Source: an uncultured Pseudobdellovibrionaceae bacterium (GTDB lineage: Bacteria > Bdellovibrionota > FAC87 > UBA2466). Taken from it: 64,000 nucleotides of DNA. The notes beneath the pieces were generated by a model. The model was not told where the DNA came from. It saw only the letters and a list, made by a program, of their open reading frames with translations, and ran no database searches. Position 1 is the stretch's first letter, and every line of letters begins with the position of its first letter. Positions 9,153 to 37,062 of this stretch are shown one piece after another. The translations under genes were made by a program, and so were the position numbers. The stretch covers positions 314,381 to 378,380 of the forward strand of contig CAZTRP010000001.1 of NCBI GenBank assembly GCA_964616705.1, given 5' to 3'.

Positions 9153-9773
9153 TTATATTTTCCTCTGCAATCCAACTACCTTTCCCTGCACTTGAAAGCT
9201 CTTATCCGTTACTCGAATGGGTTTCATTTTGCTGTTTTCGGGAACAAGTAACACGCCAGTTTCTGTTTCGACGTATCGCTTTACAGTGGTTTCTCCTGCC
9301 ACTAGGGCGACGATAATGTCTCCACTTCGAACGCGCCTACCTCGTTCAACAATCAGAATATCCCCCTCTAAGATCCCTACCTCGATCATGCTATCGCCCA
9401 CCACTCGCAAGGCGAAGCTCGGGTCTTTCGCAATTTCCTCAGAAATCATAAGAGCCCCAAGTTCAAGCTGGGGGGTTTCTCTTGGGGAGCCGGCCGCGAT
9501 TTCGCCATAAATGGGAATGAGTCTGGTTCTTGTGGGACGATAATTTGCCGGGAACAAGCCTCGGGCCTTGCGCTTTAGGTTCTTATTTTTGGAGTCTTCT
9601 AAGTGTCCCTTGCGGACCAATGCTTTGACGTACCCTTGCACTGACCCCACGGCCTTGAAACCAAAATGCTCCTGGATTTCTCGGTAAGAGGGGGGCGCCC
9701 CGCGGCTAACGCAGGTCTCTTTGATATACGAAAGAACCCGCGCTTGAGCCTGTGTTAACGCTTCTTTCTTCAT
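9153..9773 (-). CDS. lexA: SOS repressor LexA
   Basis: N-terminal wHTH (LTQAQARVL...PPSYREIQEHFGF), Ala-Gly cleavage site (EIAAGSP), catalytic Ser (GDSM) and Lys (TVKR). Confidence 0.95.
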   Translation of the reverse strand: MKKEALTQAQARVLSYIKETCVSRGAPPSYREIQEHFGFKAVGSVQGYVKALVRKGHLEDSKNKNLKRKARGLFPANYRPTRTRLIPIYGEIAAGSPRETPQLELGALMISEEIAKDPSFALRVVGDSMIEVGILEGDILIVERGRRVRSGDIIVALVAGETTVKRYVETETGVLLVPENSKMKPIRVTDKSFQVQGKVVGLQRKI

Positions 9774-9797
9774 TGTTCGCTTCCCACTTGCACCCAC

Positions 9798-9817
9798 ATA
9801 CATACAGATGTATGTAT
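9798..9817. promoter_or_regulatory. Perfect 9-2-9 palindrome, candidate LexA operator
   Basis: ATACATACA-GA-TGTATGTAT lies in the 50-bp gap between the divergent lexA and imuA start codons. Confidence 0.6.
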
Positions 9818-9823
9818 ATATGA

Positions 9824-10348
9824 GTGAGCACTCTATTGTCTAGTAATTCCTACGCTTTCCAGCCCAGGCAAGCAAAAGGCGGCTTAATTCAAGTTCTGCC
9901 CAGCCTTTCTTCACGCATCCGAGTCACGCTACAGCGTGCCATCACCACCGCCAAAACCGAAAAAGACCTCTTTCTGTGGATAGCAGATGAAGGTGTGCTT
10001 TACGCTGAAGCCATTCACCAAATGGGTGCACTTCCCCTGTCTCGACTCCTACTCATTCATGCCCCCAGCGCAGAAGAAGTTTGGCGGACGGGAATGGAAT
10101 CTGCCCAAACTGGCTTGTTTCACTTTCTTTTCTTCAAAGCCTCTCGTCCCTGCTCAACTCCCTACTTAAGAAAACTGCAACTTATTGCCCAGAAGAATCA
10201 GTGCGAAATTTTTCTTCTGACACACACACCACTCCCCCACTGGACGTTAAAAGAAACATTAGGAGATACAGACGGTGCGAACCCTGTACATAAAAAGTCC
10301 TCAGCCCATGCTGGCACTCGCCGAGAGCTGCTTCACTCTTACGCCTAA
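9824..10348 (+). CDS. imuA: ImuA/SulA-like degenerate RecA-fold protein
   Basis: First gene before imuB-dnaE2; LSRLLLIHAP...VWRTGMESAQTGLF...LRKLQLIAQ resembles ImuA; no Walker A motif. Confidence 0.6.
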   Translation: MSTLLSSNSYAFQPRQAKGGLIQVLPSLSSRIRVTLQRAITTAKTEKDLFLWIADEGVLYAEAIHQMGALPLSRLLLIHAPSAEEVWRTGMESAQTGLFHFLFFKASRPCSTPYLRKLQLIAQKNQCEIFLLTHTPLPHWTLKETLGDTDGANPVHKKSSAHAGTRRELLHSYA

Positions 10349-11513
10349 GGTTTCGCTTTGCAGCCCCTTCGAGCTGTATCTTGAAGTTGCTTGCACCAGC
10401 AACGTCTTCGGCGGTGAAGAGGGGCTTTTACAAAAAGCAGAGACACTTTTTGAAACTTTTAATTGTGGCCCCTACCGAAAAGTTCTTACTGATAGGCCGG
10501 AATGGGCAAAAGCACTGGCACAAGAAACCGACGTACTACTTCCGCCTGGCAAAAGCGCCGAATTCTTCCGATGGCTCAACATAGAAAAACTCAGCCTAGT
10601 AGGAGACCCTTTCTCCAACGAAGATGAGGTGAAAGAAAAAACTCGCCTAGTTTCTTTTATGAAAAAGGTGGGAATTCGCACCTGCGGAGATTTTTTAAAC
10701 CTCCCAGTTTCTTCAGTGCACCAACGCTTTGGAAAGCTGGGAGAAACTTTACATGACTGGGCTAGTGGCCGACGCCAGCTTTGCCTACCTATTTTTCAAT
10801 CAGAAGAACCCTTGTGCGAACACCTTGATGCCGACGAGTTGCATTCTTTTGATGCCCTGCTTTTTTCACTAAGACAAACTCTCATTCGACTACAAATCCG
10901 CCTACAAGGCAGGGCAAGAGCAGGCAAAAAAATCCGTCTTACATTCAATTTCGAATCTCATCCGGCAGTCACAAAAATGCTCGATCTGAATGAAGGCACA
11001 CAAGAGGCACAAGTGCTTTTGCGTGTTTTAAAAGAGTTTCTTGCTGGGTTTAAGTGGGAGTCTCCTCTAGTGCGACTAGAAATGGAAATGCTAGACCTGA
11101 TTCCACATCAAGCTGGCCAACTTTCACTATTAGACGATTCGGAAAATCGCTTTGCAGACCTAGCCCAATATGTAGCGCGACTACGTGCTCGATTTGGAGA
11201 AGACCATGCAGGATTTGCCACTCTACAAAACAGCCATCTCCCCGAACACACCAGCAAACTCAAATGGCCCCCCTCCCCCGATCCTAATCCGAGAGAAGAC
11301 TTCCCCCTACGCCCGTTATTTCTTTACAGCGAACCAAAGCCTTTTTCTCCAACTTCCCAATGGGACTTAATTCATTCGGAGAATTTGCACGTCGAGTGGT
11401 GGAATGCTGGCGGCCAACGCGAGTACTTCATCGCAAGAAACCAAACACAGTGCTTATGGGTTTACCGCGATAGCGTAACTAGAAACTGGTTTATCCATGG
11501 CAACTTCAACTAA
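10275..11513 (+). CDS. imuB: ImuB, inactive Y-family polymerase accessory protein
   Basis: VGIRTCGDFLNLP...QRFG thumb/HhH region and the typical ImuB C-terminus REYFIA...LWVYRD...WFIHGNF; overlaps the dnaE2 start. Confidence 0.85.
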   Translation: MRTLYIKSPQPMLALAESCFTLTPKVSLCSPFELYLEVACTSNVFGGEEGLLQKAETLFETFNCGPYRKVLTDRPEWAKALAQETDVLLPPGKSAEFFRWLNIEKLSLVGDPFSNEDEVKEKTRLVSFMKKVGIRTCGDFLNLPVSSVHQRFGKLGETLHDWASGRRQLCLPIFQSEEPLCEHLDADELHSFDALLFSLRQTLIRLQIRLQGRARAGKKIRLTFNFESHPAVTKMLDLNEGTQEAQVLLRVLKEFLAGFKWESPLVRLEMEMLDLIPHQAGQLSLLDDSENRFADLAQYVARLRARFGEDHAGFATLQNSHLPEHTSKLKWPPSPDPNPREDFPLRPLFLYSEPKPFSPTSQWDLIHSENLHVEWWNAGGQREYFIARNQTQCLWVYRDSVTRNWFIHGNFN

Positions 11514-14500
11514 AGTCCCTTTTGCCGAGCTGGCGGCCAAGACTAGCTACTCTTTCTTGGAGGGGGCCTCACACCCTGAGGAAATGGTACTAGCCGCTAG
11601 CACAGCTGGATATGAAGCCATTGCCATTACCGACGCTTTCGGTGTTTACGGCGCTCCCAGAGCACACGTGGCTGCAAAGGCCGGAAACTTTCCACTTGTC
11701 GTCGGGGCGGAAATTCCAATCAATGGAAAACCCTTTAAGCTTCTTGCTAAAAATAGAAATGGTTATGGAAACCTTTGTGAACTGCTCACCATTGCACATG
11801 AAAACAGAGAAAACCCCAGCCTGGACTGGGACAAAGTGCATGAAAAACACAAGGGCCTCTTTCTCCTCATTCCTTCTTCGCTAGAGTTAAGCGAGGAATT
11901 TCGGCCAACTCTTTCAGTATTTGAAAACAATTGCGCCTTATTGGTTAGCACCTCTCAAAATGGCAGCGACTCCAGAAGAATTCTCCAGGCCGAACAGCTC
12001 TCTAAGAAATTCAACCTAAGAGTAGCCGCAAGCAATGAACCTCTGTTTCACACCCCCGAGAGAAAACCTCTTCAAGATGTACTTACCTGCATCCGTCTCA
12101 ATTGTTCTCTTGCAGAAGGGGGGCTTCGACTCCTTCCCAATGCGGAACGCTACATAAAACCTTTACCCGCACTACAAAAGCTCTTTGCCTCTCATTTAAA
12201 CTGGCTTGAAAACAGCGCAGAAATCGCAAGCGATTGTCGTTTTTCGCTCGATGAGATTCGTTATCGATACCCAACCGAATGGATTCCAGCAGGCGAAACT
12301 GGCGACACTTACTTAGAAAAGCTTGTCTACCAAGGAGCCAAGCAGCGCTATGGAGAAAATCTGCCTAATAAGGCAAAGGAAACCATCCAGCATGAGTTGC
12401 AACTCATTCGCGAACTAAAGTATAGCGATTACTTTCTTACAATATGGGACATTGTCACTTTTGCCAGGACACAAGGCATTCTTTGCCAAGGAAGAGGTTC
12501 CGCCGCAAACTCTGTTGTTTGCTACGTGCTCGAAATCACTTCTATCGACCCAGTACATCTGAACTTACTCTTTGAAAGGTTTATCTCTCGAGAACGAAAC
12601 GAGCCACCCGACATCGACATAGACTTCGAACACGAACGAAGAGAAGAAGTTATTCAGTACATATACCGACGCTATGGCCGACACAGAGCAGCTATTACTG
12701 CTGAAGTAATTTGCTTTCGGAAAAAATCTTCCCTACGCGAAGTGGCTAAGGTTTTCGATATCCCCGTCGATAAAGTTGAGAAGATTCAAACCCTCTCCCA
12801 TCGCAGAAAGCTTTCCGAAGTTCCCGATTCAGACTGGAATGAGACTTTCAGCGAACTTCCCGCTCATAAAGTTTCTTTATATCGAGACCTCGTTCAATCC
12901 CTGATTGGCTTTCCCAGGCACCTAGGAACACACGTAGGCGGCTTTGTTTTGTGCCAAGAAGCTCTTACCAGAAACGTCCCCATTGAGAAGGCCGCCATGG
13001 CAGATCGAACCATCGTTCAGTGGGACAAGAACGACTTAGATGCCCTTGGGTTTGTACGAGTAGATATTCTGGGACTCGGAATTCTTACAGCGATTAGAAA
13101 GAGCTTTGACTACATTAAACAAACCGAAGGCATCTCCCTATCGCTTGCAACAATTCCCCAGGAAGACCCCCAAGTGTATGAGCCAATCTGTAGGGCCGAT
13201 ACGGTGGGAGTGTTTCAAATAGAATCTCGCGCCCAAATGAATATGCTTCCAAGGTTAAAGCCGCGAACGTTTTACGACTTGGTCGTAGAGATTTCACTGG
13301 TGCGCCCCGGTCCCATACAGGGCGATATGGTGCATCCGTATTTAAAACGCAGAACAGGCGAGGAATCGGTTGAGTATGCCCACCCATTACTAAAAGGCAT
13401 TCTGGAAAAAACCTACGGCGTCCCACTTTTTCAAGAGCAAATCATGAAAATGGCCATGACGGTTGCCGGCTTTACTGGCGGCGAGGCAGACGAGCTACGT
13501 CGCGCCATGGGATCTTGGAGAAGAGATGGAGCAAACCGACTAGCCCCCATTGGAGAGCGATTTCGAAAGGGACTCGTCAACCGTGGAGTCAACCCTGAAT
13601 ATGCCGAACGAGTCTTTCACCAGATACAAGGGTTTGCTGAGTATGGGTTTCCCGAATCCCATGCGGCTTCTTTTGCAGTACTGGTTTATGCCACAGCCTA
13701 TTTAAAGCGCTATTTTCCCGCCGCCTTCTTAACTGGCCTGTTGAACGCTCAACCCATGGGATTCTACAGCCCACACTCTTTAATTCATGACGGCAAAAGG
13801 CACGGCATTGAAGTGCTTCCCGTCGATATTCAAAACTCCCGCTGGGATAATCTTCTGGTATCAAAACACCAAGTTCGCTTGGGATACAGACAGATTAGAG
13901 GAATGAAAAAGCGCGTTGGAGAGGCCCTCGAAGCCGCTCGAACCCGAGGCGGCCCATTTGTCAGTTTCGAAGACTTTCTCGAACGATTACTCGCAGAGCT
14001 TCCTTTGAATACCCTAACCAAGCGAGATCTTTTTCTCCTAGCTGGTGCAAACGCTTTTGACTGCCTAGGCCTAGAACGCCGAATTGCCTTTTGGAAAATT
14101 CAAGCCCTCTGTCTTACTGATAGCGACCTTTTCTCTGCACCAACTGAAGCGGTAGCTCTTAAGAAAGAAACAAACTGGGAAAAAATTTCGGCAGATCATG
14201 AGGCTCAGGGCGTCTCTCTACACGCACACCCTTTGGCGCTCTTTAGAACTGAACTCACAAAACTTCGAGTTCTAAGTTCCCAAGACTTAGCCGCGCAAGC
14301 TGAAAGGCGCTTAGTGCAGGTGGCAGGCTTAGTGATATGCCGGCAAATGCCCCCCACTGCCTCAGGAGTGCTTTTTATTACACTAGAAGACGAAAATGGT
14401 TTTACGAATTTGGTGGTGTGGAAGAAGGTTTTTGAAGCTTATCGAGAAACTCTACTAACACAGTCTTTTTTGCGTTGCGAAGGCAGGATCCAGAAGTCCA

Positions 14501-14595
14501 AGGGTTCAAAGGTTGTCCACTTAGTAGTGGAAAAAGCTTTTCCTCTTTTGGAACTTTCTCAATCTCCTGCCTTCGCCTCACATGATTTTCACTAG
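11497..14595 (+). CDS. dnaE2: Error-prone DNA polymerase DnaE2 (ImuC)
   Basis: PHP start FAELAAKTSYSFLEGASHPEE, QGRGSAANS, PPDIDIDFEH, FPRHLGTHVGG, GFPESHAASFA, OB fold, and DnaE2-specific C-terminal SHDFH. Confidence 0.95.
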   Translation: MATSTKVPFAELAAKTSYSFLEGASHPEEMVLAASTAGYEAIAITDAFGVYGAPRAHVAAKAGNFPLVVGAEIPINGKPFKLLAKNRNGYGNLCELLTIAHENRENPSLDWDKVHEKHKGLFLLIPSSLELSEEFRPTLSVFENNCALLVSTSQNGSDSRRILQAEQLSKKFNLRVAASNEPLFHTPERKPLQDVLTCIRLNCSLAEGGLRLLPNAERYIKPLPALQKLFASHLNWLENSAEIASDCRFSLDEIRYRYPTEWIPAGETGDTYLEKLVYQGAKQRYGENLPNKAKETIQHELQLIRELKYSDYFLTIWDIVTFARTQGILCQGRGSAANSVVCYVLEITSIDPVHLNLLFERFISRERNEPPDIDIDFEHERREEVIQYIYRRYGRHRAAITAEVICFRKKSSLREVAKVFDIPVDKVEKIQTLSHRRKLSEVPDSDWNETFSELPAHKVSLYRDLVQSLIGFPRHLGTHVGGFVLCQEALTRNVPIEKAAMADRTIVQWDKNDLDALGFVRVDILGLGILTAIRKSFDYIKQTEGISLSLATIPQEDPQVYEPICRADTVGVFQIESRAQMNMLPRLKPRTFYDLVVEISLVRPGPIQGDMVHPYLKRRTGEESVEYAHPLLKGILEKTYGVPLFQEQIMKMAMTVAGFTGGEADELRRAMGSWRRDGANRLAPIGERFRKGLVNRGVNPEYAERVFHQIQGFAEYGFPESHAASFAVLVYATAYLKRYFPAAFLTGLLNAQPMGFYSPHSLIHDGKRHGIEVLPVDIQNSRWDNLLVSKHQVRLGYRQIRGMKKRVGEALEAARTRGGPFVSFEDFLERLLAELPLNTLTKRDLFLLAGANAFDCLGLERRIAFWKIQALCLTDSDLFSAPTEAVALKKETNWEKISADHEAQGVSLHAHPLALFRTELTKLRVLSSQDLAAQAERRLVQVAGLVICRQMPPTASGVLFITLEDENGFTNLVVWKKVFEAYRETLLTQSFLRCEGRIQKSKGSKVVHLVVEKAFPLLELSQSPAFASHDFH

Positions 14596-15372: not shown

Positions 15373-15936
15373 TTAAATCAGGTCGGTAAACCACCCAAAA
15401 TTCAAGTAGGGAAGCCCACCAATCCCCGAACGAATAGAAAGGTTATAGCCGAGTCCCAAGTTAAATCCACCTGGAGTTTGCCAATCCACCCCCAAACTCG
15501 CATACACGTGTGCCCCTGAGGCTTCAAAGCCATTCACCTTGATTGACGCGCCGCTCGAACTGTACACCACCATCGCCGCCGCAAGGCCTACCGTCGGGGA
15601 CAAGCTCCAACCTGGAACCAAAGCGCGAGCCCCAACTCCCAGCGTAGTAGCACTAGCGCTTAGCGAAGAGTCTCCAATGCCTGCAGAAGCACTGACTCGT
15701 CCGATGCCAGCGTGCAAACGAAGAAAATCAAATGCGTTGTAACCAACGTTCACACCCAAGAGGGTCGGAAACGGGTCTCCTAAAATACCAAGGTAGGCGC
15801 CAGCGCGTTTAGACATCCGATCGCTAGGACCATTTGTTCCAAAAAAAGTACTCTGAGAACTCTCGCTGGGTGTCCTTGCACCTAACGCCGAAAAGCCAAC
15901 TAATACTGCCAACAAACAAATACACTTTAACTTCAT
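15373..15936 (-). CDS. Putative outer-membrane beta-barrel protein
   Basis: GGAGG RBS before ATG 15936, signal peptide, alternating Gly/aromatic amphipathic strands, terminal YLNFGWF. Confidence 0.6.
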   Translation of the reverse strand: MKLKCICLLAVLVGFSALGARTPSESSQSTFFGTNGPSDRMSKRAGAYLGILGDPFPTLLGVNVGYNAFDFLRLHAGIGRVSASAGIGDSSLSASATTLGVGARALVPGWSLSPTVGLAAAMVVYSSSGASIKVNGFEASGAHVYASLGVDWQTPGGFNLGLGYNLSIRSGIGGLPYLNFGWFTDLI

Positions 15937-16112
15937 ACAGACCTCCATCCTTACGAACGAAGCTGTCCGGAGAGAACTCACAAGTCAATGTTTATTGTAC
16001 CACGGTATAATTAATTAGATTTCGAGTATCATTACAAGCCCCGGTCACCGTTCCGAAGAACTTCTGATTGCCGTTGTCTTCGGGGTTTGATAATCCCATC
16101 ACTTGTTTTTAG

Positions 16113-16188
16113 GGGCCCGTAGCTCATCTGGGAGAGCGCCACAATGGCATTGTGGAGGTAGCGCGTTCGATCCGCGTCGGGTCCACCA
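16113..16188 (+). tRNA. tRNA-Ala(GGC)
   Basis: Acceptor stem GGGCCCG/CGGGTCC with the G3:U70 Ala identity pair; anticodon stem CCACA/TGTGG with loop AT-GGC-AT; T-loop TTCGATC; CCA encoded. Confidence 0.97.
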
Positions 16189-16232
16189 ATTTTGCCTAAT
16201 TTATAAATAATTCCAATATCTTAATAAAAATT

Positions 16233-16255
16233 TGCGCTACCTCGGAGGTAGCGCA
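16233..16255. repeat. Perfect 11-1-11 palindrome built from the tRNA motif GAGGTAGCGC
   Basis: TGCGCTACCTC-G-GAGGTAGCGCA; 16244-16254 is identical to tRNA positions 16154-16164. Confidence 0.85.
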
Positions 16256-16313
16256 GGTACCCACAACTTCCCATAACTCTTGGGCAGAAGTACGCTGTTT
16301 ACGCACAAATCTT

Positions 16314-16346
16314 GTGGACCAGACACGGATCGAAAGCGCTACCTCC
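16314..16346 (-). repeat. Inverted copy of the tRNA-Ala 3' half
   Basis: Reverse complement GGAGGTAGCGCtTTCGATCCGtGTCtGGTCCAC is 30/33 identical to 16154-16186. Confidence 0.9.
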
Positions 16347-16383
16347 TAAATAGGTGGCCGTTTACATTTTGCAAGGAAGATTA

Positions 16384-17178
16384 ATGGCGAATACAACCTA
16401 CAGCTTCACAGAGGATACCAAAGCAGTCGCCTTTATAGACATTCTTGGTTTTTCTAACATTAGCTTGAAAGCCTCGACAGAACCCCTCGGAGACGCGGGG
16501 CTGGCAATACATCTTTTCGAAAACTGCATCGACCGCAATCGTTCCAAGATGATGCGGTGTTTTCCGCGTGAGGTGCCAATCGGCAAACATGTCGAAGGCC
16601 AGAATTTTAAAGTAGCTAGCGTTTGGCACAAAGAAGTTCCCGAAGGAGCGGTGAATTTTTCCTACATGAGCGATTGTGCTGTCCTGTACAGCAATTCGCT
16701 TACACATCTATTCGAAATAGTTTCAGACATTTTTGGTACGGCTATTACGCGAGGAGTGCCGCTTAGAGGTGCAATCGCGATGGGTGCCTTGTTCCACTCT
16801 GAATCTGGGCAGCGGCCGGGAACCGGCATCTGCCTCTATGGAGATGCCTTAACACGTGCGGCAATTTTAGAGAGAGCGGTTCATGGCGCCGGGATGCGCG
16901 TGTGGCTTGATCCGCCGGTAGTCGAGTTAGCAAAAAATACAAATTTGGGAGCATTTATTCGTGAGGGCAGCTGTCGGAAACCGGCCGAATTGAAATGGTG
17001 GTTACAAGCTTACGAACCCGGGGGACCGAGACAGACGGAAAGCGCAGAAATGGAATGGCAGTTTGGGAGATGGTTCACCGAAAAATTCACCAGAAAATGG
17101 TTCAAAGGATCCAACTGCCGACACACAAAAAAAGTCATAGCTCTAGCAGTGAAAGAGCTGCGGGCTCTCGGTCGCTAG
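16384..17178 (+). CDS. Class III nucleotide cyclase-like (palm fold) protein, uncharacterised family
   Basis: VAFIDILGFS (first metal Asp), YMSDCAV (second Asp), PLRGAIAMG and LYGDALTRAAILE follow the order of adenylate/guanylate cyclase motifs. Confidence 0.7.
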   Translation: MANTTYSFTEDTKAVAFIDILGFSNISLKASTEPLGDAGLAIHLFENCIDRNRSKMMRCFPREVPIGKHVEGQNFKVASVWHKEVPEGAVNFSYMSDCAVLYSNSLTHLFEIVSDIFGTAITRGVPLRGAIAMGALFHSESGQRPGTGICLYGDALTRAAILERAVHGAGMRVWLDPPVVELAKNTNLGAFIREGSCRKPAELKWWLQAYEPGGPRQTESAEMEWQFGRWFTEKFTRKWFKGSNCRHTKKVIALAVKELRALGR

Positions 17179-17225
17179 ACGATTCGAAACTATTGGACTT
17201 CAGTTTCTCGTGAAAGGAATAGGGA

Positions 17226-18053
17226 ATGCGTGCTTGCGTAGCTCTAGTAGACAAGTTTCGGGTAAAGCTGGTGACGCGTAAGGAAATACCGCCACCAGAA
17301 CTATTCCACTTCACCTCAATATCAGCAGCCACCTCGATTTTAACTCATAAGCAACTTCGAGCGACAGGATATGAAGGACTAACTGACCTGGAGGAAATTC
17401 GACACGGCATCCAACTATTCGCCGAAGAATTACAGAGAAACAAATTTTCTTTTTCAACGAGGCCCAATGAAGTGCGTGGCGCATTAATTCGACTACTGCA
17501 TAAAGAGCGAGATGCGTTGCGAATAAATTGCTTCATAACTTCTTTCTCATCAGTTGAATCAGAAAAGCATTGGAAGGATTATGGCCAGGAAGGAAAAGGA
17601 GTATGCCTAAGATTCAAGTCGGAGGTCTTCAAAGAAAATTTGTTGTATAAAGTTGTGTATGATCTCTCCCAGAAACTCTCAGTCGTAGCAGAAACGTTAA
17701 ATAACATACAAATTCTCGCCGATAAAATTTCGAAAACCAGACATTCTTGTCCGAGATGCGTTGATCAGATGGCGAACATAATACTTACTGCTGCAGTCGT
17801 TCAATCAGCTAAGTTCAAAATTGCCTCACATGATCTAGATAGTGAATGGCGTCTGATCCAGTGGATTAAAAGAGACAATAGTGAGAGTAAAAAGGGCCAC
17901 GCACGAGGACGCGACTATGAGTATCTAGACTGTGATCTTCTATTAACGGACGTGGCTGACAACCCAATTTCACTTGAAGCCGGACCCCGTTCTGATCCGA
18001 ATCACATAGAAAACCTGAAACAGTTACTCTTCTCAGCGAAAGAAACCTCTTAA
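17226..18053 (+). CDS. DUF2971-like protein
   Basis: LFHFTS...ILTHKQLRAT...LTDLEEI, CFITSFS...HWKDYG..GKGVCLRF, LYKVVYD, K...DSEWRLI match the DUF2971 pattern. GTG at 17270 is an alternative start. Confidence 0.7.
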   Translation: MRACVALVDKFRVKLVTRKEIPPPELFHFTSISAATSILTHKQLRATGYEGLTDLEEIRHGIQLFAEELQRNKFSFSTRPNEVRGALIRLLHKERDALRINCFITSFSSVESEKHWKDYGQEGKGVCLRFKSEVFKENLLYKVVYDLSQKLSVVAETLNNIQILADKISKTRHSCPRCVDQMANIILTAAVVQSAKFKIASHDLDSEWRLIQWIKRDNSESKKGHARGRDYEYLDCDLLLTDVADNPISLEAGPRSDPNHIENLKQLLFSAKETS

Positions 18054-18118
18054 AGGAGTCGCGCCGAACTATTTGACATATCCTTCTTAACTATTTGAAA
18101 GCGTGGTATTTGTTGCCT

Positions 18119-18151
18119 AGGTAGCGCCTTCGATGGTCGTCGGGTCCACCA
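18119..18151 (+). repeat. attR-like direct copy of the tRNA-Ala 3' end
   Basis: AGGTAGCGCcTTCGATggtCGTCGGGTCCACCA versus the tRNA AGGTAGCGCGTTCGATCCGCGTCGGGTCCACCA. Confidence 0.85.
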
Positions 18152-18175
18152 GCTTAAACCCAAATTTAGAACTTA

Positions 18176-19351
18176 TTGGTCCTTTATTCCCATCATGCTA
18201 TAAGCCCACCCGTGCGAAGACGGTTCATACTTCTGGGACTCGTGGGTCTCGTCTATTCTGTTTCTAGTTTAGCCCATCGTGACCTTTGGGGCGATTGTGA
18301 CCGGGAATACTACTGCTGGCACATTCTGGAGTCCGCATCCCGTGGAAAAATTGATTTGCTGCCTCGCCCTATAGCACCTGAACCGCAGCCAGACACTTTT
18401 TTAAAGAAAGTAGCGCGCTTTCTAGGAATCGATAGTGTGCTCCTTAAAGATCTTCGTTTTGACCTGAAATACCGAGATCAACCCTTGAAGGGGATTGAGG
18501 GTAGGTACGATCCGATTTTGCGTTCGTATCGTTACTATCCTTCTGCAATCCCAACCCGCCCTCGTTTCTCTCTTACGTTGAGCCATGGGATTGGAGCGAA
18601 AACAACAAGTCATTCTGGCACAACCGCAACTTGGCTCCGCACTTTTTTGGGCCTGGATAAAACAGGACGACGACTTCATTCGGAGCGAGAAGCAAAAGGA
18701 TCGCCAGCACTGAATTTGTATGCAGAAACATTCGATCTTCCCGAATCTGGAAATAGCACGGCATTTACGAATGCGCGGCGGTTCGGAGACTTCAGAACGC
18801 TCCAGGACACGCGATTTTTGTTAGCGCAGACCCAAAAACGCCTTCAACTCGAACTTCCCAAATCGAAGCGTGTTTGGCTCGCCCAGAGCGCTTCTTGTGG
18901 CCTCGTCGCCGATGTGAATGCCCACCACCCTGGCTTACTACACGGACAGATTTTCATAGGGTTTTTGCACCCCGAAGTTGGCTTTCAAAATAGTGTGGAT
19001 GCCTTTAATCGTGAAGCCTCACTTCCGACCCATCACCCTGATTATTTTGTCGCCAATTGGCCGGCGTTTAATTGGGTGAACAGGATGTATGGCCAAATGA
19101 CATGGCATCACGGCGAAGGCGACCCCTTCCATGGAACGCCGACGCTCGTATTGATCGGAGAGCACGACTCGGAGGTTTCCGTTGACGCTCGTCGCCATTA
19201 TCGGGACCTTTCTGCAAAATACCCGCACATTTATTACAAAGAAATTTCAGGCGCTGGGCATAACATACTTTCTCCGGTTGCTAGCACCCGGTATCAGCCT
19301 GACAACGCCATCAAAGCGATCTTCGAGTTTCTGGATGCTATAGACAATTAG
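18176..19351 (+). CDS. Secreted alpha/beta hydrolase-fold protein
   Basis: LTLSHGIG oxyanion region, WLAQSASC nucleophile elbow, TLVLIGEHDSEV (Asp), ISGAGHNI (His); N-terminal signal/TM helix. Confidence 0.65.
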   Translation: MVLYSHHAISPPVRRRFILLGLVGLVYSVSSLAHRDLWGDCDREYYCWHILESASRGKIDLLPRPIAPEPQPDTFLKKVARFLGIDSVLLKDLRFDLKYRDQPLKGIEGRYDPILRSYRYYPSAIPTRPRFSLTLSHGIGAKTTSHSGTTATWLRTFLGLDKTGRRLHSEREAKGSPALNLYAETFDLPESGNSTAFTNARRFGDFRTLQDTRFLLAQTQKRLQLELPKSKRVWLAQSASCGLVADVNAHHPGLLHGQIFIGFLHPEVGFQNSVDAFNREASLPTHHPDYFVANWPAFNWVNRMYGQMTWHHGEGDPFHGTPTLVLIGEHDSEVSVDARRHYRDLSAKYPHIYYKEISGAGHNILSPVASTRYQPDNAIKAIFEFLDAIDN

Positions 19352-20955: not shown

Positions 20956-21039
20956 ATGGATTATATTTTTGTGGGAACTATCGCGATCGCCTTGCTCGGC
21001 TATCTGCTCTACGCACTACTCTACCCTGAAAATTTTTGA
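20956..21039 (+). CDS. kdpF: K+-transporting ATPase subunit F
   Basis: 27-aa MDYIFVGTIAIALLGYLLYALLYPENF with the KdpF YL..AL..PE.F signature, directly before kdpA. Confidence 0.85.
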   Translation: MDYIFVGTIAIALLGYLLYALLYPENF

Positions 21040-21046
21040 GGTACCC

Positions 21047-22732
21047 ATGAGCCAGAATGAAATGCTCGAAATCATCTCCCTGTTGGCGGCGCTTCTCTTA
21101 ATTTCCCCGTTTTTAGGCGAGTGGATAGCCAAGGTATTAGAAGCTGAAAACCACGTTTTGAGTTTTCTAAGGCCGATCGAAACCACACTTTACCGGTGCA
21201 TGGGGGTTACAGAAAATTCCCAAATGCACTGGAAGCAGTACCTGCTTTCAGTACTGGCATTTAGCTTCGCAGGGTTTGTTTTCCTTTTTGTCCTGCAGAT
21301 GGCTCAAGGGGCACTTCCGCTTAATCCCCAAATTCTACCTGGGCTCTCATGGCACCTCGCATTCAATACAGCAGCCAGCTTTGTTACCAACACCAACTGG
21401 CAGTCCTACGGCGGCGAATCGACAATGAGCTACCTAGTTCAAATGATGGGACTGACGGTGCAAAACTTTCTCAGCGCTGCTACCGGAACGGCCGTGCTAG
21501 TCGCTCTAGCTCGAGGGTTACGCAATAGCACATCACAAGAAATAGGAAATTTTTGGACCGACATCACGAGAGTCACTCTTTACGTCCTATTACCTCTCTC
21601 GGTTGTATTTGCGATCGTGCTTGTCGGCGAAGGCGTAGTACAAAGCCTATCGGCATACATTCCCGCAAAAACTCTAGAGGGCGCGATTCAGATCCTTCCT
21701 CAAGGACCAGCAGCCTCTCAAATTGCCATTAAACAACTTGGAACCAACGGCGGAGGGTTCTTCAACACCAACAGCGCTCACCCATTCGAAAACCCAACAC
21801 CGCTGTCCAACTGGTTGCAGACACTCGCGATTCTTCTCATCCCCGCCGCACTCCCCTTTTCCTTTGGACGGTGGATCAAAGCACGGAAACATGGGGCTTT
21901 GCTTTTCTTTACAATGGCATTCTTGCTGATCGCAGGACTTTCGGTGTCGCTTTGGTCGGAGACCTTATCGAATCCCGCCATCCTAGGCGCATCTATGGAG
22001 GGCAAAGAAACGCGATTCGGGGTTATCAATTCAATAGTCTGGTCGGTATTTACTACTGCTGCCTCGAATGGCTCGGTAAATGCCATGCATTCGTCGTTGA
22101 GTCCCATTTCTGGCGGCATTGCCCTGTTCAACATCATGCTGGGAGAAATCATCTTCGGCGGAATTGGCTCGGGCCTATATGGCATGGTGATATTTGCCAT
22201 CATCGCGGTGTTCATCGCGGGCCAAATGATCGGGCGAAGCCCAGAGTACCTAGGAAAGAAAATAGAGGCCAACGAAATCAAAATGGCGATGATAGCGATT
22301 CTTATTCCGAATCTTGCTATCCTGTTTGGCGCCGCTTTTTCGATGGTTCTGCCTATTGCCCTAAGCAGCCTATCTTCGCAAGGGCCCCATGGACTTTCCG
22401 AAATGCTTTACACTTTTACTTCAGCTGCCGGAAACAACGGCAGTGCGTTTGCCGGATTAAATGCCAACACACCGTACTTCAATGTGGTTCTAGGTATCGG
22501 CATGCTTCTTGGTAGGTTTGGGGTGATATTTCCGGTCCTCGCCATTGCGGGGAGTCTAAGCCGGAAGAAAATCTGCCCCCCTTCATCAGGGACGCTTCGT
22601 ACTGACTCAACCACGTTCGCGCTCTTACTCATTGGGATAATACTTATCGTCGGCGGCCTTTCCTTTTTCCCAGCATTGTCGCTTGGGCCAATTATGGAAC
22701 ATTTCTTATGGATGAAGGGGAAGGGGTTCTAA
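21047..22732 (+). CDS. kdpA: K+-transporting ATPase subunit A
   Basis: [54 protein letters not shown]. Confidence 0.97.
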
Positions 22733-22733
22733 A

Positions 22734-24809
22734 ATGAAAAATAGCTTTCTTAATACCGAGATTCTCAAGAATGCAGTCTTAGATGCGTTCCGGAAACTGG
22801 CGCCGGCTTCTCAATATAAAAACCCGGTAATGTTTGTCACACTCATCGGGGCGGTAGTTACAACGCTCCTGCTTTTGCTTGAAACCATCCAGGGGAAGTT
22901 TTCTGCTTTTGAACTTCAGATCTCGGTCTGGCTTTGGTTTACGGTGCTATTTTCAAATTTTTCAGAGAGTTTGGCAGAAGGAAGGGGAAAGGCCCAAGCA
23001 GAGACACTGAGAAAATCAAGAACGGAAACCATAGCCAAGCGTCTCCATGGGCAACAAGTAGAAACGGTGCCTGCGAACCGGTTAAAGAAGGGCGACCGTG
23101 TAGTGTGTGTTGCTGGTGATACCATACCCCTTGACGGTGAAGTAGTTGAGGGAATTGCAACAGTAGACGAATCAGCCATTACGGGTGAATCGGCGCCTGT
23201 AATACGAGAAAGCGGAGGAGATCGAAGCGCTGTCACCGGAGGCACAAAAGTTCTTAGCGATCGCATCGTAGTAGTAATTACCGCTGAACCCGGGCACTCG
23301 TTCGTCGACCGAATGATTTCGCTAGTTGAAGGGGCTAAACGGAAAAAAACGCCCAGCGAAACCGCTTTGAGTATCTTGCTCTCCGGATTAACTATTATTT
23401 TTCTTGCGGTAGTCATGACTTTGAAAGTATTTGCCGACTATTCAGCACTGTCTGCAAACCAGGATATTTCAAACGTTGTCACTATACCCGTATTGGTGGC
23501 TTTGCTCGTGTGCCTTATCCCCACAACCATCGGCGGACTGCTCAGCGCCATTGGCATCAGCGGAATGGATAGGTTAATCCGGAAAAACGTCATTGCTACA
23601 AGCGGCAGAGCAGTCGAAGCAGCCGGAGACATCGATGTACTCCTACTCGATAAAACAGGAACAATCACCCTGGGCAATCGTTTAGCCACCAACTTCGTTC
23701 CCGCTCCTGGGATTGCGGTCGACGAGCTGGCGCGGGTGGCCCAGTTAGCGTCCCTTAGCGATGAAACCCCCGAAGGGAGATCAGTAGTCGTTTTGGCAAA
23801 AGAGCGTTACCAACTTCGAGCATCGTCCTACCAGCCCACTCAACTTCAGTTCGTTCCCTTCTCTGCGGAAACCAGGATGAGCGGCGTGAACATTACCGAA
23901 AGCGGAAAAGTGATCAGCATTCGCAAAGGAGCTCGTGATGCTATCGAAAGACATATCGATTCCTTAGGTGGCACGTTTCCGGCTGCCATAAAGCAAGTTA
24001 CCGATGAAATCGCCAGAAGTGGCGGAACTCCTCTGGTTGTATCGAATGGAAATAGTGCAATGGGAGTGATCCATCTAAAGGACGTAGTAAAGGGAGGCAT
24101 TCGCGACCGATTCTCAGAGTTAAGAAAAATGGGAATCAAAACGGTGATGATAACCGGAGACAATCCGCTTACGGCAGCCGCCATCGCGGCCGAGGCTGGC
24201 GTTGACGATTTCATGGCCGAAGCAACACCTGAAACCAAGCTCCAGCGAATTCGCGATGAGCAAAACAGAGGGCACCTCGTCGCCATGACCGGAGATGGAA
24301 CCAACGATGCTCCCGCCTTGGCACAAGCCGACGTAGGCGTCGCCATGAACACCGGAACTCAGGCCGCTCGAGAAGCCGGCAACATGGTGGATTTGGACAG
24401 CAACCCCACTAAACTCATCGAAATTGTAGAAACGGGAAAACAGCTTTTGATGACTCGGGGTGCGCTTACTACTTTCAGTGTTTCCAATGATATTGCGAAG
24501 TACTTCGCCATAATCCCAGCCATGTTCGCGGGGCTCTATGGAAGTACTGTTCACTCCGGCCCTCTCGCTAACCTCAACCTAATGGGCCTGCACTCGCCTC
24601 AGAGCGCCGTTCTGAGTGCTGTAATATTCAATGCGCTTATCATCGCAGCGCTAATCCCACTGGCCATAAGGGGAGTCAAGTACGAGGCGCTCGGTGCCTC
24701 TGAGGTCCTGCGAAGAAATCTCGTTCGGTATGGTTTGGGAGGCATTATCGCGCCGTTTCTGGGGATTAAGGCGATTGATCTATTTATCGTTTTTGTGGGG
24801 CTTGTATGA
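22734..24809 (+). CDS. kdpB: K+-transporting P-type ATPase subunit B
   Basis: [12 protein letters not shown], phosphorylation motif [19 protein letters not shown]. Confidence 0.98.
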
Positions 24810-25363
24810 ACACCTTTAAAGCAACGTGGATGACCAGTGCTCGAGCAATACTTTGCTTTACTATAGTGACTGGAGTTCTCTACCCGCTACTCATCACACT
24901 CATCGCGAAGTTCTTTTTTCCAGCTAAGGCAACTGGTAGTTTGTTAGCCAATCAACCCCAAGTAATCGGCTCCGAACTTCTTGCGCAGTCCTTTACCCAA
25001 TCCCGCTACTTTTGGCCAAGGCCGTCGGCGAACAATTATGACTCGGCAGCCAGCGCCGCCTCCAATCTAGGCCCCACCTCAGCACAGCTAATCAAACGTA
25101 TTCAACTAGCAGAACAGCAGGGCTTGATTGCAGAAATGAGATACACGTCCGGAAGTGGCCTAGATCCACACATCAGCCCGTTGGCAGCCAAAGCTCAAAT
25201 CGCCCGTGTCGCAAAAGCTAGAAGCCTGAATGCGCAACAGGAAAATATGCTTTTGACACTGGTAGGAAACAATGTAGAGCCTCCTCAGATAGGATTTTTG
25301 GGTGAGCCACGAGTGAACGTCCTTAAATTGAATCTTCAGATGGATGAAACATTTGGAAAATGA
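24806..25363 (+). CDS. kdpC: K+-transporting ATPase subunit C
   Basis: [14 protein letters not shown]...[35 protein letters not shown]. Confidence 0.96.
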
Positions 25364-28041
25364 CTGACGATAAACCCATTGATCCCGACCAACTGCTTCG
25401 CTCAATAGTAAACGAGCAGAAGCGAGAAAAACGTGGTCTGCTGCGAATTTTTTTCGGAATGTGCCCGGGGGTCGGAAAAACTTATGCAATGCTGCAGGCA
25501 GCCCAAGAACACAAACGAAACGGCAGTGAAGTCCTGGTAGGGATAGTCGAAACTCACTCTCGAAAAGAAACTTTGGCTGTTCTAGACGGACTGGAAGTCT
25601 TAAAGCGCAAGCGAATCGACTATCGCGGCAAGGATTTCGACGAGCTAGATGTCGAACTAATTCTAAAACGAAGACCAAAGCTGGTGCTTATTGACGAACT
25701 AGCTCACACCAACGTACCGGGGAGCAGACATAGTAAGCGTTACCATGACGTAAATGAAATTCTAGACGCAGGAATCGACGTATTCACCACCGTTAACGTC
25801 CAGCACGTAGAAAGTCGGGTCGACCTAGTAAAACAAATTACTGGGGTGACGGTTTCGGAAACGGTTCCGGATTCTTTTTTCGAAATGGCCGATCAAATTG
25901 AATTGATAGATCTCCCCCCGACGGAGCTCCTAAAGAGGCTAAAAGAGGGAAAGATCTACCTAGGAGATATGGCTCAGCGAGCCATTGATGGCTTTTTCCA
26001 GCAAGAGCACTTGCTTGCGCTTAGAGAACTCGCTCTGCGCTTCACCGCCGAATTGGTTGAGGGGGAACTCAACGATCAAATGCTCAGAAAGCATATTGTT
26101 GGGCCCTGGAACACTAGGGAAAAATTGCTGGTCGCTATTAGCCACAGCCCCTATTCCCGGCGCCTAATTCGCGCCACAAGGCGAAAGGCTTTCAATTTAG
26201 AAGCGAAATGGATTGCGCTCTATATCGACACAGGCGAGCCGCTTTCCGAGGAAGACCGAACGACTCTAGGCAAGCACTTCGACATGGCAAGAGAGCTTGG
26301 AGCGGAGCTGGTAACTGTCAGAGACACCGACGTTCCTTCTGCCATTCGCCGAATTGCTGAAGAAAAGAACGTAACCCAAATCGTAATGGGAAGGCCGGAC
26401 AGACGATTTTTCAGCGACCTGTTCTCGGGAGGTACAATTCTAGATAAGCTTGTCAGCGAAACGAGCGAAATAGACATCCATGTCCTTCGGCAGGTTCGCA
26501 AACCAAAGCGAAGCGCATTTGGTTTTAAGCTTAAACTTCCCGAACCTCTGCAAGACTTCACTTCGTACTCTAATACACTTCTGGCGATTGCAGTGGTTTC
26601 TACAATTGGGTATGGACTTGAACCAATCATAAAGTACCAAGCGGTTGGATTTATTCTTCTGCTTACAGTAATCGCAGTGGCGGGATTTGTTCGAAGAGGC
26701 CCTACACTGTTTGCCGCACTCGTCAGTGCTCTGACCTGGAACTATTTCTTTATTCCACCGAAGTTCACTTTCGCAATAAAAGAGGTGGCCGATGTCATGA
26801 TGATTGTCGCCTACTTTGCGGTGGCAATTACTGCCAGCTTCTTGACTTCGAAAATCCGCAGACAGGCAGATGAATTAAAAAAGCGTGCGCATCAAACTGC
26901 ACTTCTTTATGAGTTTAGCAGCGAACTGGCTAGTGCAAGTGGAATTGAGTCAATTGGCACCTTAACCACCCAGTTCGTAGAACGCACTCTCGGGGGAATG
27001 TGCCGGCTCACCATACAATCTGGCGACGGGACTCTAAAGGACTGCGGCTATCAAGAATCGGCGTTTAGACCTGACGAGAAGCAACTCGCGGTGGCACATT
27101 GGGTGGTACTAAACTGCAAGAAGGCAGGAATAGGCACTGAAACACTATCTGCAAGCGGCGTATTTTGCTTACCGGTAAAAGGAACAAAAAGTACGCTCGG
27201 TGTATTGCTATTTTACCCTAGCAACACAAAGCGAGTTTTGATGGAAGAAGAGTCAGTTTTACAATCTGCCGCTGCCAGCATAGCCATTTCTCTGGAGCGT
27301 GAACTTTTGCAGAGGCAAACTGAAACTTTAAGAATTGTAGAAGAATCCGAAAAACTCTACCAGACCATCCTAGATTCGGTTTCACACGAACTTAGAACCC
27401 CTATTACTTCAATCCTCGGAGCAGCCACGGCACTTGAGGATCCGATGACGGCGCGCAATGAAAACAATCGCAAACCACTGACCGAAGAGATAGTTCGCGC
27501 CAGCCGCCGACTGAATCACGTAGTGGAAAACCTTCTCGACACGTCTAGAATGAGCATGGGCAAGCTAGATTTAAAAAAAGAGTTGGTGGGGCTCTACGAA
27601 GCCGTTCAAGCCATTGTCAGCGATTGGAAGCAGCTTGAGCAGACTCCATTGAGGGTAACAGTGGAGGGAGAAGAAGTTTATGCTGCCGTCGACACAGGAT
27701 TATTGAGGAGTGCCGTGGAAAACCTGCTCCACAATGCACTAAAGTACTCGTCAGGAAATGAAATTCGAGTTTCTATTCGGCCCGCGGAAGGCGCTATGGC
27801 AAGCATTTCGGTGGCGGACGAAGGAGAAGGAATCCCTGAACATGAACTAACGAAATTGTTTGATAAGTTTTATCGAAGAGCCGGCACCCCTACGGGTGGA
27901 GTGGGACTCGGATTGTCTATAGCAAAGGGAATAGTAGAGGCCCATGGCGGCCAGATCTCCGCTCGACGACGTTCGGACAAGAAGGGAACGGTTTTTGTCA
28001 TAACCCTTCCTGCGTGGCAGGATAAGGTACCCAATATATAA
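25360..28041 (+). CDS. kdpD: Sensor histidine kinase KdpD (full length)
   Basis: KdpD domain (GMCPGVGKTYAML, DELAHTN), USP domain, 4 TM helices, GAF, HisKA (SHELRTP) and HATPase (NALKY, GGVGLGLSI). Confidence 0.96.
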   Translation: MTDDKPIDPDQLLRSIVNEQKREKRGLLRIFFGMCPGVGKTYAMLQAAQEHKRNGSEVLVGIVETHSRKETLAVLDGLEVLKRKRIDYRGKDFDELDVELILKRRPKLVLIDELAHTNVPGSRHSKRYHDVNEILDAGIDVFTTVNVQHVESRVDLVKQITGVTVSETVPDSFFEMADQIELIDLPPTELLKRLKEGKIYLGDMAQRAIDGFFQQEHLLALRELALRFTAELVEGELNDQMLRKHIVGPWNTREKLLVAISHSPYSRRLIRATRRKAFNLEAKWIALYIDTGEPLSEEDRTTLGKHFDMARELGAELVTVRDTDVPSAIRRIAEEKNVTQIVMGRPDRRFFSDLFSGGTILDKLVSETSEIDIHVLRQVRKPKRSAFGFKLKLPEPLQDFTSYSNTLLAIAVVSTIGYGLEPIIKYQAVGFILLLTVIAVAGFVRRGPTLFAALVSALTWNYFFIPPKFTFAIKEVADVMMIVAYFAVAITASFLTSKIRRQADELKKRAHQTALLYEFSSELASASGIESIGTLTTQFVERTLGGMCRLTIQSGDGTLKDCGYQESAFRPDEKQLAVAHWVVLNCKKAGIGTETLSASGVFCLPVKGTKSTLGVLLFYPSNTKRVLMEEESVLQSAAASIAISLERELLQRQTETLRIVEESEKLYQTILDSVSHELRTPITSILGAATALEDPMTARNENNRKPLTEEIVRASRRLNHVVENLLDTSRMSMGKLDLKKELVGLYEAVQAIVSDWKQLEQTPLRVTVEGEEVYAAVDTGLLRSAVENLLHNALKYSSGNEIRVSIRPAEGAMASISVADEGEGIPEHELTKLFDKFYRRAGTPTGGVGLGLSIAKGIVEAHGGQISARRRSDKKGTVFVITLPAWQDKVPNI

Positions 28042-28043
28042 GT

Positions 28044-28742
28044 ATGACTACTACCCGAAGCAAAATCTTGATCATCGACGATGAAGCTTCTATTCGCCGT
28101 TTTCTTAGGGTGAGCCTTGAATCACATGGCTTTGAAGTTTTTGAAAGTGCCGATGGCAAATCGGGAATTGCAGAGGTAATTGCTCGACGTCCTGATGTGG
28201 TTTTACTCGATCTTGGCTTGCCCGATATGGCGGGAATGGAAGTACTCAAGCAGCTTCGAGAATGGTCAAAGACGCCGATTCTTGTTTTGACCGTTAAGGA
28301 TCGTGAAGAACAAAAGGTTCAGGCACTAGACGTAGGAGCCGATGACTACGTCACCAAGCCCTTTAGTGTTCCCGAATTACTTGCCAGGATTCGCGTGGCT
28401 ATCAGGCATTCTAGCTCGCCAACCGCTGAGCCAGTTTTTCGGTCTGGACCTTTGGAGATAGACCGTGGAGCGCACATTGTGCGTGTAAATGGGAAAGAAG
28501 TGAAGCTAAGTGCAACGGAGTACGAGCTACTGAAAGTCCTTGCGGATTATGCCGGTAAAGTTGTCACCCACAGAATGCTACTCCAATTGGTTTGGGGTCC
28601 CAACGCTACAGAACACACGCAATATTTGCGCGTGTATGTGGGCCAGCTGAGAAAGCATTTGCGCACCAACGACGAGAGCCCCGACCTTATTCAAACGGAA
28701 CTTGGTGTGGGATATCGGCTACTACTTCTAGACCGCGATTAA
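28044..28742 (+). CDS. kdpE: Response regulator KdpE
   Basis: IIDDE, LLDLGLPD, GADDYVTKPF, wHTH with HTQYLRVYVGQLRK and TELGVGYR. Confidence 0.95.
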   Translation: MTTTRSKILIIDDEASIRRFLRVSLESHGFEVFESADGKSGIAEVIARRPDVVLLDLGLPDMAGMEVLKQLREWSKTPILVLTVKDREEQKVQALDVGADDYVTKPFSVPELLARIRVAIRHSSSPTAEPVFRSGPLEIDRGAHIVRVNGKEVKLSATEYELLKVLADYAGKVVTHRMLLQLVWGPNATEHTQYLRVYVGQLRKHLRTNDESPDLIQTELGVGYRLLLLDRD

Positions 28743-36408: not shown

Positions 36409-36651
36409 TTAGGCTCTGTCTGGGGGAGCGCCGAGTCTCTGTCTGCTTACAATGAGTCCATGGGACAAATCGTATGGCGACATACCAATCGTAACCTGAT
36501 CCCCAGCTATGACCCGAATGCGGTGTTTCCGCAGCCGACCCGATAGCTTTGCAGTTACCGTCTTGCCGCCTTTCAAGGTGATGAGAAATACATCACCCGA
36601 AAGGACATCGCTTACTATTCCATCGACTTTGGCTAAGTCGTCGCGGGCCAC
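36409..36651 (-). CDS. infA: Translation initiation factor IF-1 (divergent)
   Basis: LSGRLRKHRIRVIAGDQVTIGMSPYDLSHGLI; S1 fold. Confidence 0.88.
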   Translation of the reverse strand: MARDDLAKVDGIVSDVLSGDVFLITLKGGKTVTAKLSGRLRKHRIRVIAGDQVTIGMSPYDLSHGLIVSRQRLGAPPDRA

Positions 36652-37062
36652 TTAGTAGCCACCGCGCCCGCCGCCGCCGCCACCACGGCCACCGCCGCCG
36701 AAGCCGCCACGGCCACCGCCGCCGCCGCCACCGCGACCGCCGCCACCAAATCCACCACCGCCGCCGCCGCCGCGACCGCCACGGAAGCCACCGCCTCCTC
36801 CACCGGACCGAGGTTCTTGCGGACGTGCTTCATTTACAGTGAGAGCGCGACCTTCGAATTCTTTGCCATTGAGTTCCGAGATGGCTTTTTCAGCATCTTC
36901 ATCAGAAGCCATTTCAACGAAGCCGAATCCTTTAGAACGGCCGCTGTCACGGTCCGTAATCAAACGAACGGAGTCTACTCCGCCAATTTGCGAAAAGAGA
37001 TCGCTTACCGAGCCTTCCGTCGCGGAGAACGGAAGATTTCCTACATACAACTTTTTACCCAT
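36652..37062 (-). CDS. RRM RNA-binding protein with Gly/Arg-rich tail
   Basis: RNP2 LYVGNL, RNP1 KGFGFVEM, RALTVNEARP, then GGGGRGG repeats. Confidence 0.95.
   Translation of the reverse strand: MGKKLYVGNLPFSATEGSVSDLFSQIGGVDSVRLITDRDSGRSKGFGFVEMASDEDAEKAISELNGKEFEGRALTVNEARPQEPRSGGGGGGFRGGRGGGGGGGFGGGGRGGGGGGGRGGFGGGGRGGGGGGRGGY

Follow-up and report, generated by a model that had tools for sequence, protein, structure and literature searches.

How does a tRNA gene come to lie beside direct and inverted copies of its own 3′ half, and do those copies still do anything? We asked these questions of a tRNA-Ala(GGC) gene in a 64,000-nucleotide stretch of DNA from an uncultured Pseudobdellovibrionaceae bacterium; this whole stretch is referred to as the window, and its coordinates are used throughout. 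An earlier reading of the DNA, the original prediction, had offered three options. Recombination between inverted repeats might flip a two-gene cassette relative to read-through from the tRNA, giving phase variation; the repeats might be scars of repeated captures in both orientations; or a read-through transcript might pair with its own tRNA 3′ half, coupling tRNA processing to expression of the cargo. Our analysis supports this prediction in part: the answer is yes for the scars and no for the switch, and the RNA option is unlikely.

The tRNA-Ala(GGC) Gene and the Copies of Its 3′ Half

The tRNA-Ala(GGC) gene itself (16113..16188, plus strand) is intact, with a G3:U70 pair and an encoded CCA; it was called by ARAGORN and matched Rfam RF00005 with 52.9 bits. 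Its 3′ half, comprising the variable loop, the T arm, the 3′ acceptor strand and the CCA, is termed copy A (16154..16188, plus strand; GGAGGTAGCGCGTTCGATCCGCGTCGGGTCCACCA). Copy A is a repeat of attL type and the template for every other copy. Copy B (16306..16351, minus strand) corresponds to the inverted copy reported at the outset, matching at 30 of 33 core positions. It covers the entire 3′ half of the tRNA but has decayed: the T stem contains a T.C mismatch, and the CCA is gone. Together, A and B form an inverted repeat with 46-nt arms (16149-16194 and 16306-16351) that are 83% complementary, copy B having three mismatches in the 33-nt core and eight across the 46-nt arm. Copy C (18119..18151, plus strand) is a direct copy of the 3′ half (29/33) and an attR-type repeat that closes the islet described below. 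Its final 14 nt, CGTCGGGTCCACCA, match the tRNA exactly, all differences being confined upstream of them. B and C also form an inverted repeat (37 nt, 78%). No exact run between the arms exceeds 11 nt in A/B or 9 nt in B/C.

Chance can be ruled out as the origin of these repeats, both by shuffling and by BLAST E-values. Against the 64-kb window, copy B was recovered with an E-value of 6e-8 and copy C with one of 1.5e-6. Four exact occurrences of the 10-mer GAGGTAGCGC were found in the window, at 16155(+), 16234(-), 16245(+) and 16336(-). All four sites lie inside 192 nt; the expectation from shuffles was 0.12, and none of 100 shuffles reached four. A similar fifth site, at 18118-18127, has one mismatch. 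The five whole or partial occurrences originally reported were thus borne out in both their coordinates and their number. For the 33-mer AGGTAG...CCA, the best match in 300 shuffles of the 2-kb flank was 21/33, compared with 29 observed.

The copies also share a boundary. Copy B, both stubs of the palindrome described in the next section, copy C and a repeat in a related genome, L104, all start at the same position of the tRNA, GGAGGTAGCGC, which is the beginning of the variable loop. This shared start would be explained by an att identity block, because such a block yields a common boundary, which random local duplication is not expected to do.

Several other identities for these elements were considered and set aside. 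Copy B does not represent another tRNA gene, or a pseudo-tRNA, encoded on the minus strand: neither ARAGORN nor Rfam called it, its T stem is mismatched and the CCA is absent. Nor is the structure likely to be an integron attC-like site or a MITE, given that an integron integrase is absent, that it is present as a single copy in the window and that its arms are far longer than those of attC. A putative fourth copy with a deleted T arm, to the right of the palindrome (16244-16266, aligned with the L104 repeat), gave a suggestive alignment that did not reach significance.

A Palindrome that Resembles a Terminator

Between the tRNA and copy B lies a perfect 11+1+11 palindrome, TGCGCTACCTC-G-GAGGTAGCGCA (16233..16255, assigned to the minus strand), composed, as the original prediction had it, of two occurrences of the motif; these both reproduce the opening 10-11 nt of copy A, arranged head to head. 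Its predicted RNA fold is worth -19.4 kcal/mol on the plus strand and -16.9 kcal/mol on the minus strand. Read along the minus strand, from 16255 to 16233, a stem of 10-11 bp (10 pairs called, 6 of them GC) is followed by the tail AAATTTTTATT. The palindrome therefore looks like an intrinsic terminator of that strand: like a rho-independent terminator, it has a GC-rich stem of 10-11 bp and then a T-run. This T-run is provided by the 44-nt AT-rich stretch (13.6% GC; 16189..16232) that lies directly 3′ of the tRNA. It differs from a typical rho-independent terminator, however, in that the stem is derived from a tRNA, no minus-strand gene enters it and the plus strand has no U-tract after the stem, leaving no intrinsic terminator in that direction.

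Because the T-run is on the minus strand and no minus-strand gene reads into the palindrome at present, it is probably a relic terminator from a lost leftward gene, classically an integrase. Six-frame translation of 16230-16420, to the right of the minus-strand terminator, yielded no integrase remnant. We predict that the present role of the palindrome is at most that of a hairpin terminator or an insulator or barrier.

The claim that no U-tract terminator follows the tRNA held for the first 150 nt or so. Beyond that point it did not, since a weak plus-strand terminator-like hairpin lies at 16338-16358, just ahead of the ribosome-binding site of the cargo. Its stem is formed by GCTACCT, with which copy B ends, and AGGTGGC, located seven nt farther downstream, an arrangement that may be due to chance. 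We found no sigma-70-like promoter in 15800-17700, and in an Rfam covariance-model search of 15500-18700, RF00005 was the only significant family.

An Islet with Two Unrelated Cargo Genes

The intact tRNA and copy C bound an islet of 1.96 kb (16189-18151) that contains only two ORFs. From left to right it consists of the 44-nt AT-rich stretch, the palindrome, a spacer of ~50 nt, copy B, a leader of 32-33 nt, a 264-aa ORF, a 275-aa ORF, a spacer of 65 nt and copy C.

The 264-aa protein (16384..17178, plus strand) had no match in Pfam, NCBIfam or PADLOC, and its family is rare, with 14 clusters. AlphaFold and Foldseek nevertheless assigned it a class III nucleotidyl-cyclase fold. The AlphaFold model has a pLDDT of 84.5, and its best Foldseek matches in the PDB are all catalytic domains of adenylyl or guanylyl cyclases (E ~3e-7, probability 1.0). 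Within the family, D19, D97 and R128 are conserved, and two Asp plus an Arg are the class III cyclase pattern. We conclude that the protein is, as modeled, a cyclase at the level of its fold. The 275-aa protein (17226..18053, plus strand) is a divergent, DUF2971-like protein whose Pfam match to PF11185 (E 0.0015) is below the cut-off. At E<=1e-3 it is matched by 743 representatives, of which the closest is 31% identical, and its gene has 42.6% GC, compared with 50% in the window.

The islet had been described as a cyclase-DUF2971 cassette. The cyclase stands at the level of the fold and the DUF2971 assignment only weakly, but at other loci the two genes do not occur together as a conserved pair: no cyclase-fold homologue has a DUF2971-like gene alongside it, and we rejected the idea of a conserved two-gene system. 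Indeed, the gene that adjoins the cyclase-fold homologue differs at every homologous locus, so that there is no conserved effector neighbour. Neither protein had a PADLOC match to a Pycsar- or CBASS-type defence system, with which the class III cyclase fold is the only thing in common. There are hints that the rare cyclase-fold family is an accessory gene, and possibly a defence-related one.

These homologues have a patchy distribution and lie in contexts unrelated to one another, of a mobile or defence-like character among others. At L018 (2167-4566), the homologue adjoins a CBASS-like trio of SMODS, E2-CBASS and Sa_NUDIX genes; at L019 (586-2813), it adjoins IS66 genes; and at L014 (5897-6424), it lies beside a recombinase fragment. 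A tRNA-Arg lies ~4 kb from the homologue in L014 and L015, and is the sole tRNA among the ten homologous loci.

We also considered whether the repeats had traveled with the cargo, and rejected this. None of the ten homologous loci has B-like or palindrome-like DNA, or an adjacent tRNA-Ala, and the repeats therefore belong to the tRNA locus and not to the cargo. No donor element or attP was found in IMG/VR, either by exact scans for A, B, C and the palindrome or by protein scans with both cargo genes.

The Locus Is Found in a Single Orientation

The structure is faithfully assembled. Fifteen distinct Logan contigs, from three SRA series (SRR356723xx, SRR285202xx and SRR13208889), are 100% identical to the window wherever they cover it, and because they were assembled independently, they rule out an assembly artefact. 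The islet is carried by all contigs of the same species. At the junction between tRNA and cassette, all four spanning contigs have one orientation, and the same is true of all 14 contigs that span the junction between cassette and right flank; identity is 100% in both cases. A second orientation was seen in none of the 15 assembled contigs, a result at the level of contigs rather than raw reads.

Several Logan contigs end inside the region, at 16128, 16130, 16156 and 16239, within the tRNA or the palindrome. These ends are likely to reflect low coverage, or branching of the k-mer graph caused by other organisms in the samples whose tRNA is the same or similar.

These data bear directly on the first of the original options, here taken in a form in which a recombinase supplied in trans would flip either the 111-bp spacer with its hairpin, by exchange between A and B, or the two-gene cassette, by exchange between B and C, and would thereby vary the relation of these pieces to tRNA read-through. 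Inverted repeats do flank both segments, and in Thermococcus, tRNA-targeting integrases can invert the DNA that lies between two oppositely oriented tRNA att copies, both in vitro and in vivo (PMC5495485). We found no recombinase domain, however, in the islet, in its neighbours or among 36 ORFs tested across the 64-kb window, and there is no sigma-70-like promoter in the spacer or otherwise in or beside the putative invertible pieces, though transcription might enter from the tRNA by read-through. The arms have diverged, to the point at which the longest uninterrupted identity is the 11 nt of A/B and the 9 nt of B/C. Exact identity of 9-11 nt is too little for homologous recombination. The contigs agree on one orientation, and their ends do not sit where A/B or B/C exchange would create a branch, which makes inversion an unlikely cause of them. 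We conclude that the locus is probably not switching today, and we regard an invertible switch as a very improbable account of the repeats.

Related Genomes Carry Different Debris at the Same tRNA

By way of the upstream dnaE2 gene, combined with an exact search for the 5′ part of the tRNA, we reached three related genomes, L103, L104 and L105. Their DnaE2 proteins are 66-68% identical in amino acid sequence to that of the window, and each has the same tRNA-Ala(GGC) close to dnaE2. The tRNA is identical to that of the window at 76/76 nt in L103 and L104, and at 74 nt in L105. L105 keeps the full left-hand synteny of dnaE2, a lipoprotein gene, an outer-membrane protein gene and the tRNA. The cassette, copy B and the palindrome are absent from all three genomes, an absence seen in relatives that are distant and whose right flank is not syntenic with the window. 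No empty site was obtained through the right-flank gene, whose single homologue (43% identity) is not syntenic. Nor did GTDB genomes with the DnaE2 C-terminus provide one, the nearest being 57-58% identical and having no tRNA nearby.

The tRNA gene is not bare in these genomes. In L104 (17919-18124), the identical tRNA-Ala is followed by a 180-bp GC-rich insert, a gene-less mini-islet. A shortened copy of the 3′ half in direct orientation, GGAGGTAGCGCGTT/TG/GGGTCCACC, marks the end of this insert; in it the T loop is deleted, and it has the shared start noted above. In L103 (11725-11817, the same as L102:4517-4610), tRNA-derived copies lie just 5′ of the tRNA, mirroring the 3′-side arrangement of the window. 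One is a direct copy of 20 nt, covering the leader and tRNA positions 1-19; the other is an inverted copy of 28 nt (86%), covering positions 6-33 in the 5′ half. In L105 (12720-12997), there are two 139-nt tandem units, 98.5% identical to each other, which begin in the terminal CCAC of the tRNA. The L105 tRNA has no encoded CCA, and ~1 kb without a called gene follows the tandem units.

The tRNA-derived debris is thus different in each relative, which shows that insertion and rearrangement have recurred at the tRNA-Ala(GGC) gene in this lineage. The inverted fragments, to judge from these comparisons, are among the leftovers of the rearrangement process. Our survey of tRNAs in other genomes covered 1.57 Mb of loci and just 11 tRNAs, too few to give a background rate for inverted self-copies.

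The comparison also raises the possibility that copy B and the palindrome arose by local replication error, through template switching or fold-back synthesis seeded by the stems of the tRNA gene, and that only copy C is a true att repeat. The mirror arrangement in L103, with its direct copy, inverted copy and gene, suggests a recurrent mutational process. Moreover, the likeness between A and B may extend a few nucleotides past both ends of the 33-nt core, and the palindrome is perfect with a 1-nt centre, like the products of fold-back. On the other hand, the common start of B, both stubs, C and the L104 repeat is better suited to an att identity block; the DNA that separates the copies is not duplicated sequence; and a template switch normally takes contiguous flanking DNA as well. 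We think this origin unlikely.

The wider surroundings of the tRNA were also surveyed. On the left (9153-14595) are a LexA gene (9153-9803, minus strand), two ORFs of 174 and 412 aa without a Pfam match and the gene for a 1032-aa error-prone polymerase, DnaE2, a cluster that looks like an SOS 'mutasome' cassette. The order LexA, ~410-aa ORF, DnaE2 beside tRNA-Ala recurs in L103, L104 and L105. On the right (20969-28742) is a Kdp potassium-transport cluster, in which KdpC and the response regulator have Pfam matches and an ORF of the size of KdpA bears that label in matching contigs; this neighbourhood is ordinary chromosomal context and not island DNA. Farther away (36635-36817), ~900 nt upstream of a tRNA-Pro(CGG), is a dense CCGCCG-type repeat whose 66-nt copies overlap, being spaced 9-15 nt apart; it probably encodes a low-complexity, Gly-rich segment on the minus strand.

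Does the Inverted Copy Act as RNA?

The inverted copy could also have a function in RNA. [quoted passage not shown] Between them, we consider these two forms to have little chance of being right.

The arrangement itself is suggestive. No sigma-70-like promoter intervenes between the tRNA and the start of the cargo, no plus-strand U-tract terminator comes right after the tRNA, and copy B ends just 32-33 nt ahead of the start codon of the cargo. RNA folding, proposed at the outset as a check, gave the pairing of A with B that had been anticipated (plus-strand RNA 16113-16360, -103.9 kcal/mol, z = -7.95), and in L103 the inverted self-copy is likewise predicted to pair with the 5′ half of its tRNA (-89.4 kcal/mol, z = -6.26). 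Any inverted repeat folds strongly by its nature, however, and conservation gives the pairing no backing. Copy B has decayed, with its three core and eight arm mismatches, it occurs in none of L103, L104 and L105, and apart from the tRNA the region matches no Rfam family. The leader between copy B and the start codon is no more structured than shuffled sequence (z = -0.3 to -0.6). Sequestering the sole copy of tRNA-Ala(GGC) would be costly, and the strong hairpin at 16233-16255 may block read-through altogether.

Two genomes, that of the window and L103, have an inverted copy of this tRNA next to the gene itself, which could alternatively reflect selection for pairing with the tRNA precursor, and the L103 copy could be either a recurring mutation or a selected feature. 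The most specific proposal is that copy B, being antisense to the tRNA-Ala(GGC) 3′ half, is a functional RNA within the leader that read-through would give the cyclase-like gene; this we see as a long shot. Expression of the cargo would then depend on processing of the tRNA precursor or on free 3′ fragments produced by cleavage under phage attack or stress, a dependence that we hold to be highly doubtful. Equally part of this proposal, the independent inverted self-copy of L103 would reflect selection and not just mutation, which is hard to credit on the present comparison.

A Probable Stack of att Scars

The explanation that we favor, and judge to be probable, is a stack of att scars at a tRNA insertion hot spot, within a decayed, integrase-less, CIME-like islet. 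It corresponds to the second of the original options, scars of repeated captures, which is the best supported: the tRNA and a direct copy of its 3′ half bound an islet that lacks a recombinase, and this islet is missing from three relatives that have the same tRNA and bear other direct and inverted tRNA fragments. That the islet was inserted here is suggested by its repeat structure together with its absence in the relatives. Base composition is in keeping with this, with low GC in the second cargo gene (42.6%) and in the att arm (13.6%), and so are the patchy occurrence of the cargo in mobile or defence contexts elsewhere and the terminator-like signature on the minus strand.

On this explanation, for which we infer the order of events, the tRNA-Ala(GGC) gene of the lineage would be a hot spot for insertion and rearrangement. 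The 1.96-kb islet would lie between the intact tRNA, as attL, and the 29/33 copy C, as attR; it would have lost, or never possessed, its own recombinase, and would carry two unrelated accessory genes. Because copy A is native in the relatives and copy C differs from it only upstream of the last 14 nt, the strand exchange that inserted the islet can be placed, tentatively, within CGTCGGGTCCACCA. In that case the element would be the source of two stretches, the portion of copy C that carries the mismatches and the AT-rich DNA that follows the tRNA; the original trailer of the tRNA would be the DNA beyond 18151. Copy B and the two 11-nt stubs would be dead att fragments in the tRNA-proximal 160 bp, left by an earlier integration, excision or rearrangement. 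Conservative site-specific recombination alone yields neither an inverted att copy nor a head-to-head pair of stubs. Because of this, an extra event would be needed for the inverted copy: an exchange in the wrong orientation, a small inversion or a template switch.

Elements with some of these features are known. CIMEs have been defined, and their tandem accretion described (PMC5704250). The islet resembles a CIME or other tRNA-integrated islet in its sequence organization: it begins at an intact tRNA, ends in a direct copy of the 3′ half and holds small accessory cargo, at a site reused in the lineage. Inside it there is no integrase, excisionase or transfer gene, an absence that distinguishes a CIME from an IME or ICE. 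The islet differs in being very small (1.96 kb, two genes) and in having, in addition, an att-like copy in inverted orientation and a pair of stubs that form a palindrome. In Prochlorococcus, tycheposons and the scattered partial tRNAs left by degenerate elements have been reported (bioRxiv 10.1101/2020.12.28.424599). There, as is proposed for the window, repeated integration at a single tRNA has left partial copies of it together with degenerate elements, and the cargo is of the niche or defence type; the window differs in having no tyrosine-recombinase gene or fragment, and in that one scar is inverted. For the inversion, a mechanistic precedent comes from Thermococcus, in which partial and full tRNA copies are found on opposite strands after post-integration inversion (PMC9897764), so that, as is proposed for the window, an integration-derived tRNA fragment is inverted relative to the gene (PMC9897764, PMC5495485). 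Those cases are archaeal, involve a known integrase and span inversions of kilobases to hundreds of kilobases, whereas the window is bacterial, 117 nt separate the gene from its inverted copy and no integrase was found nearby.

Finally, these results have several implications. The cyclase-fold cargo gene is a candidate accessory or defence gene. Island finders that use only direct tRNA fragments would get the boundary of this islet right and miss the inverted scar inside it. A functional copy B, if it were true, would be a new way of coupling tRNA integrity to gene expression, though the present results do not favor it. Overall, however striking the set of tRNA-derived repeats at this locus, it can be explained without a switch, as the footprint of the repeated use of one tRNA gene for insertion.
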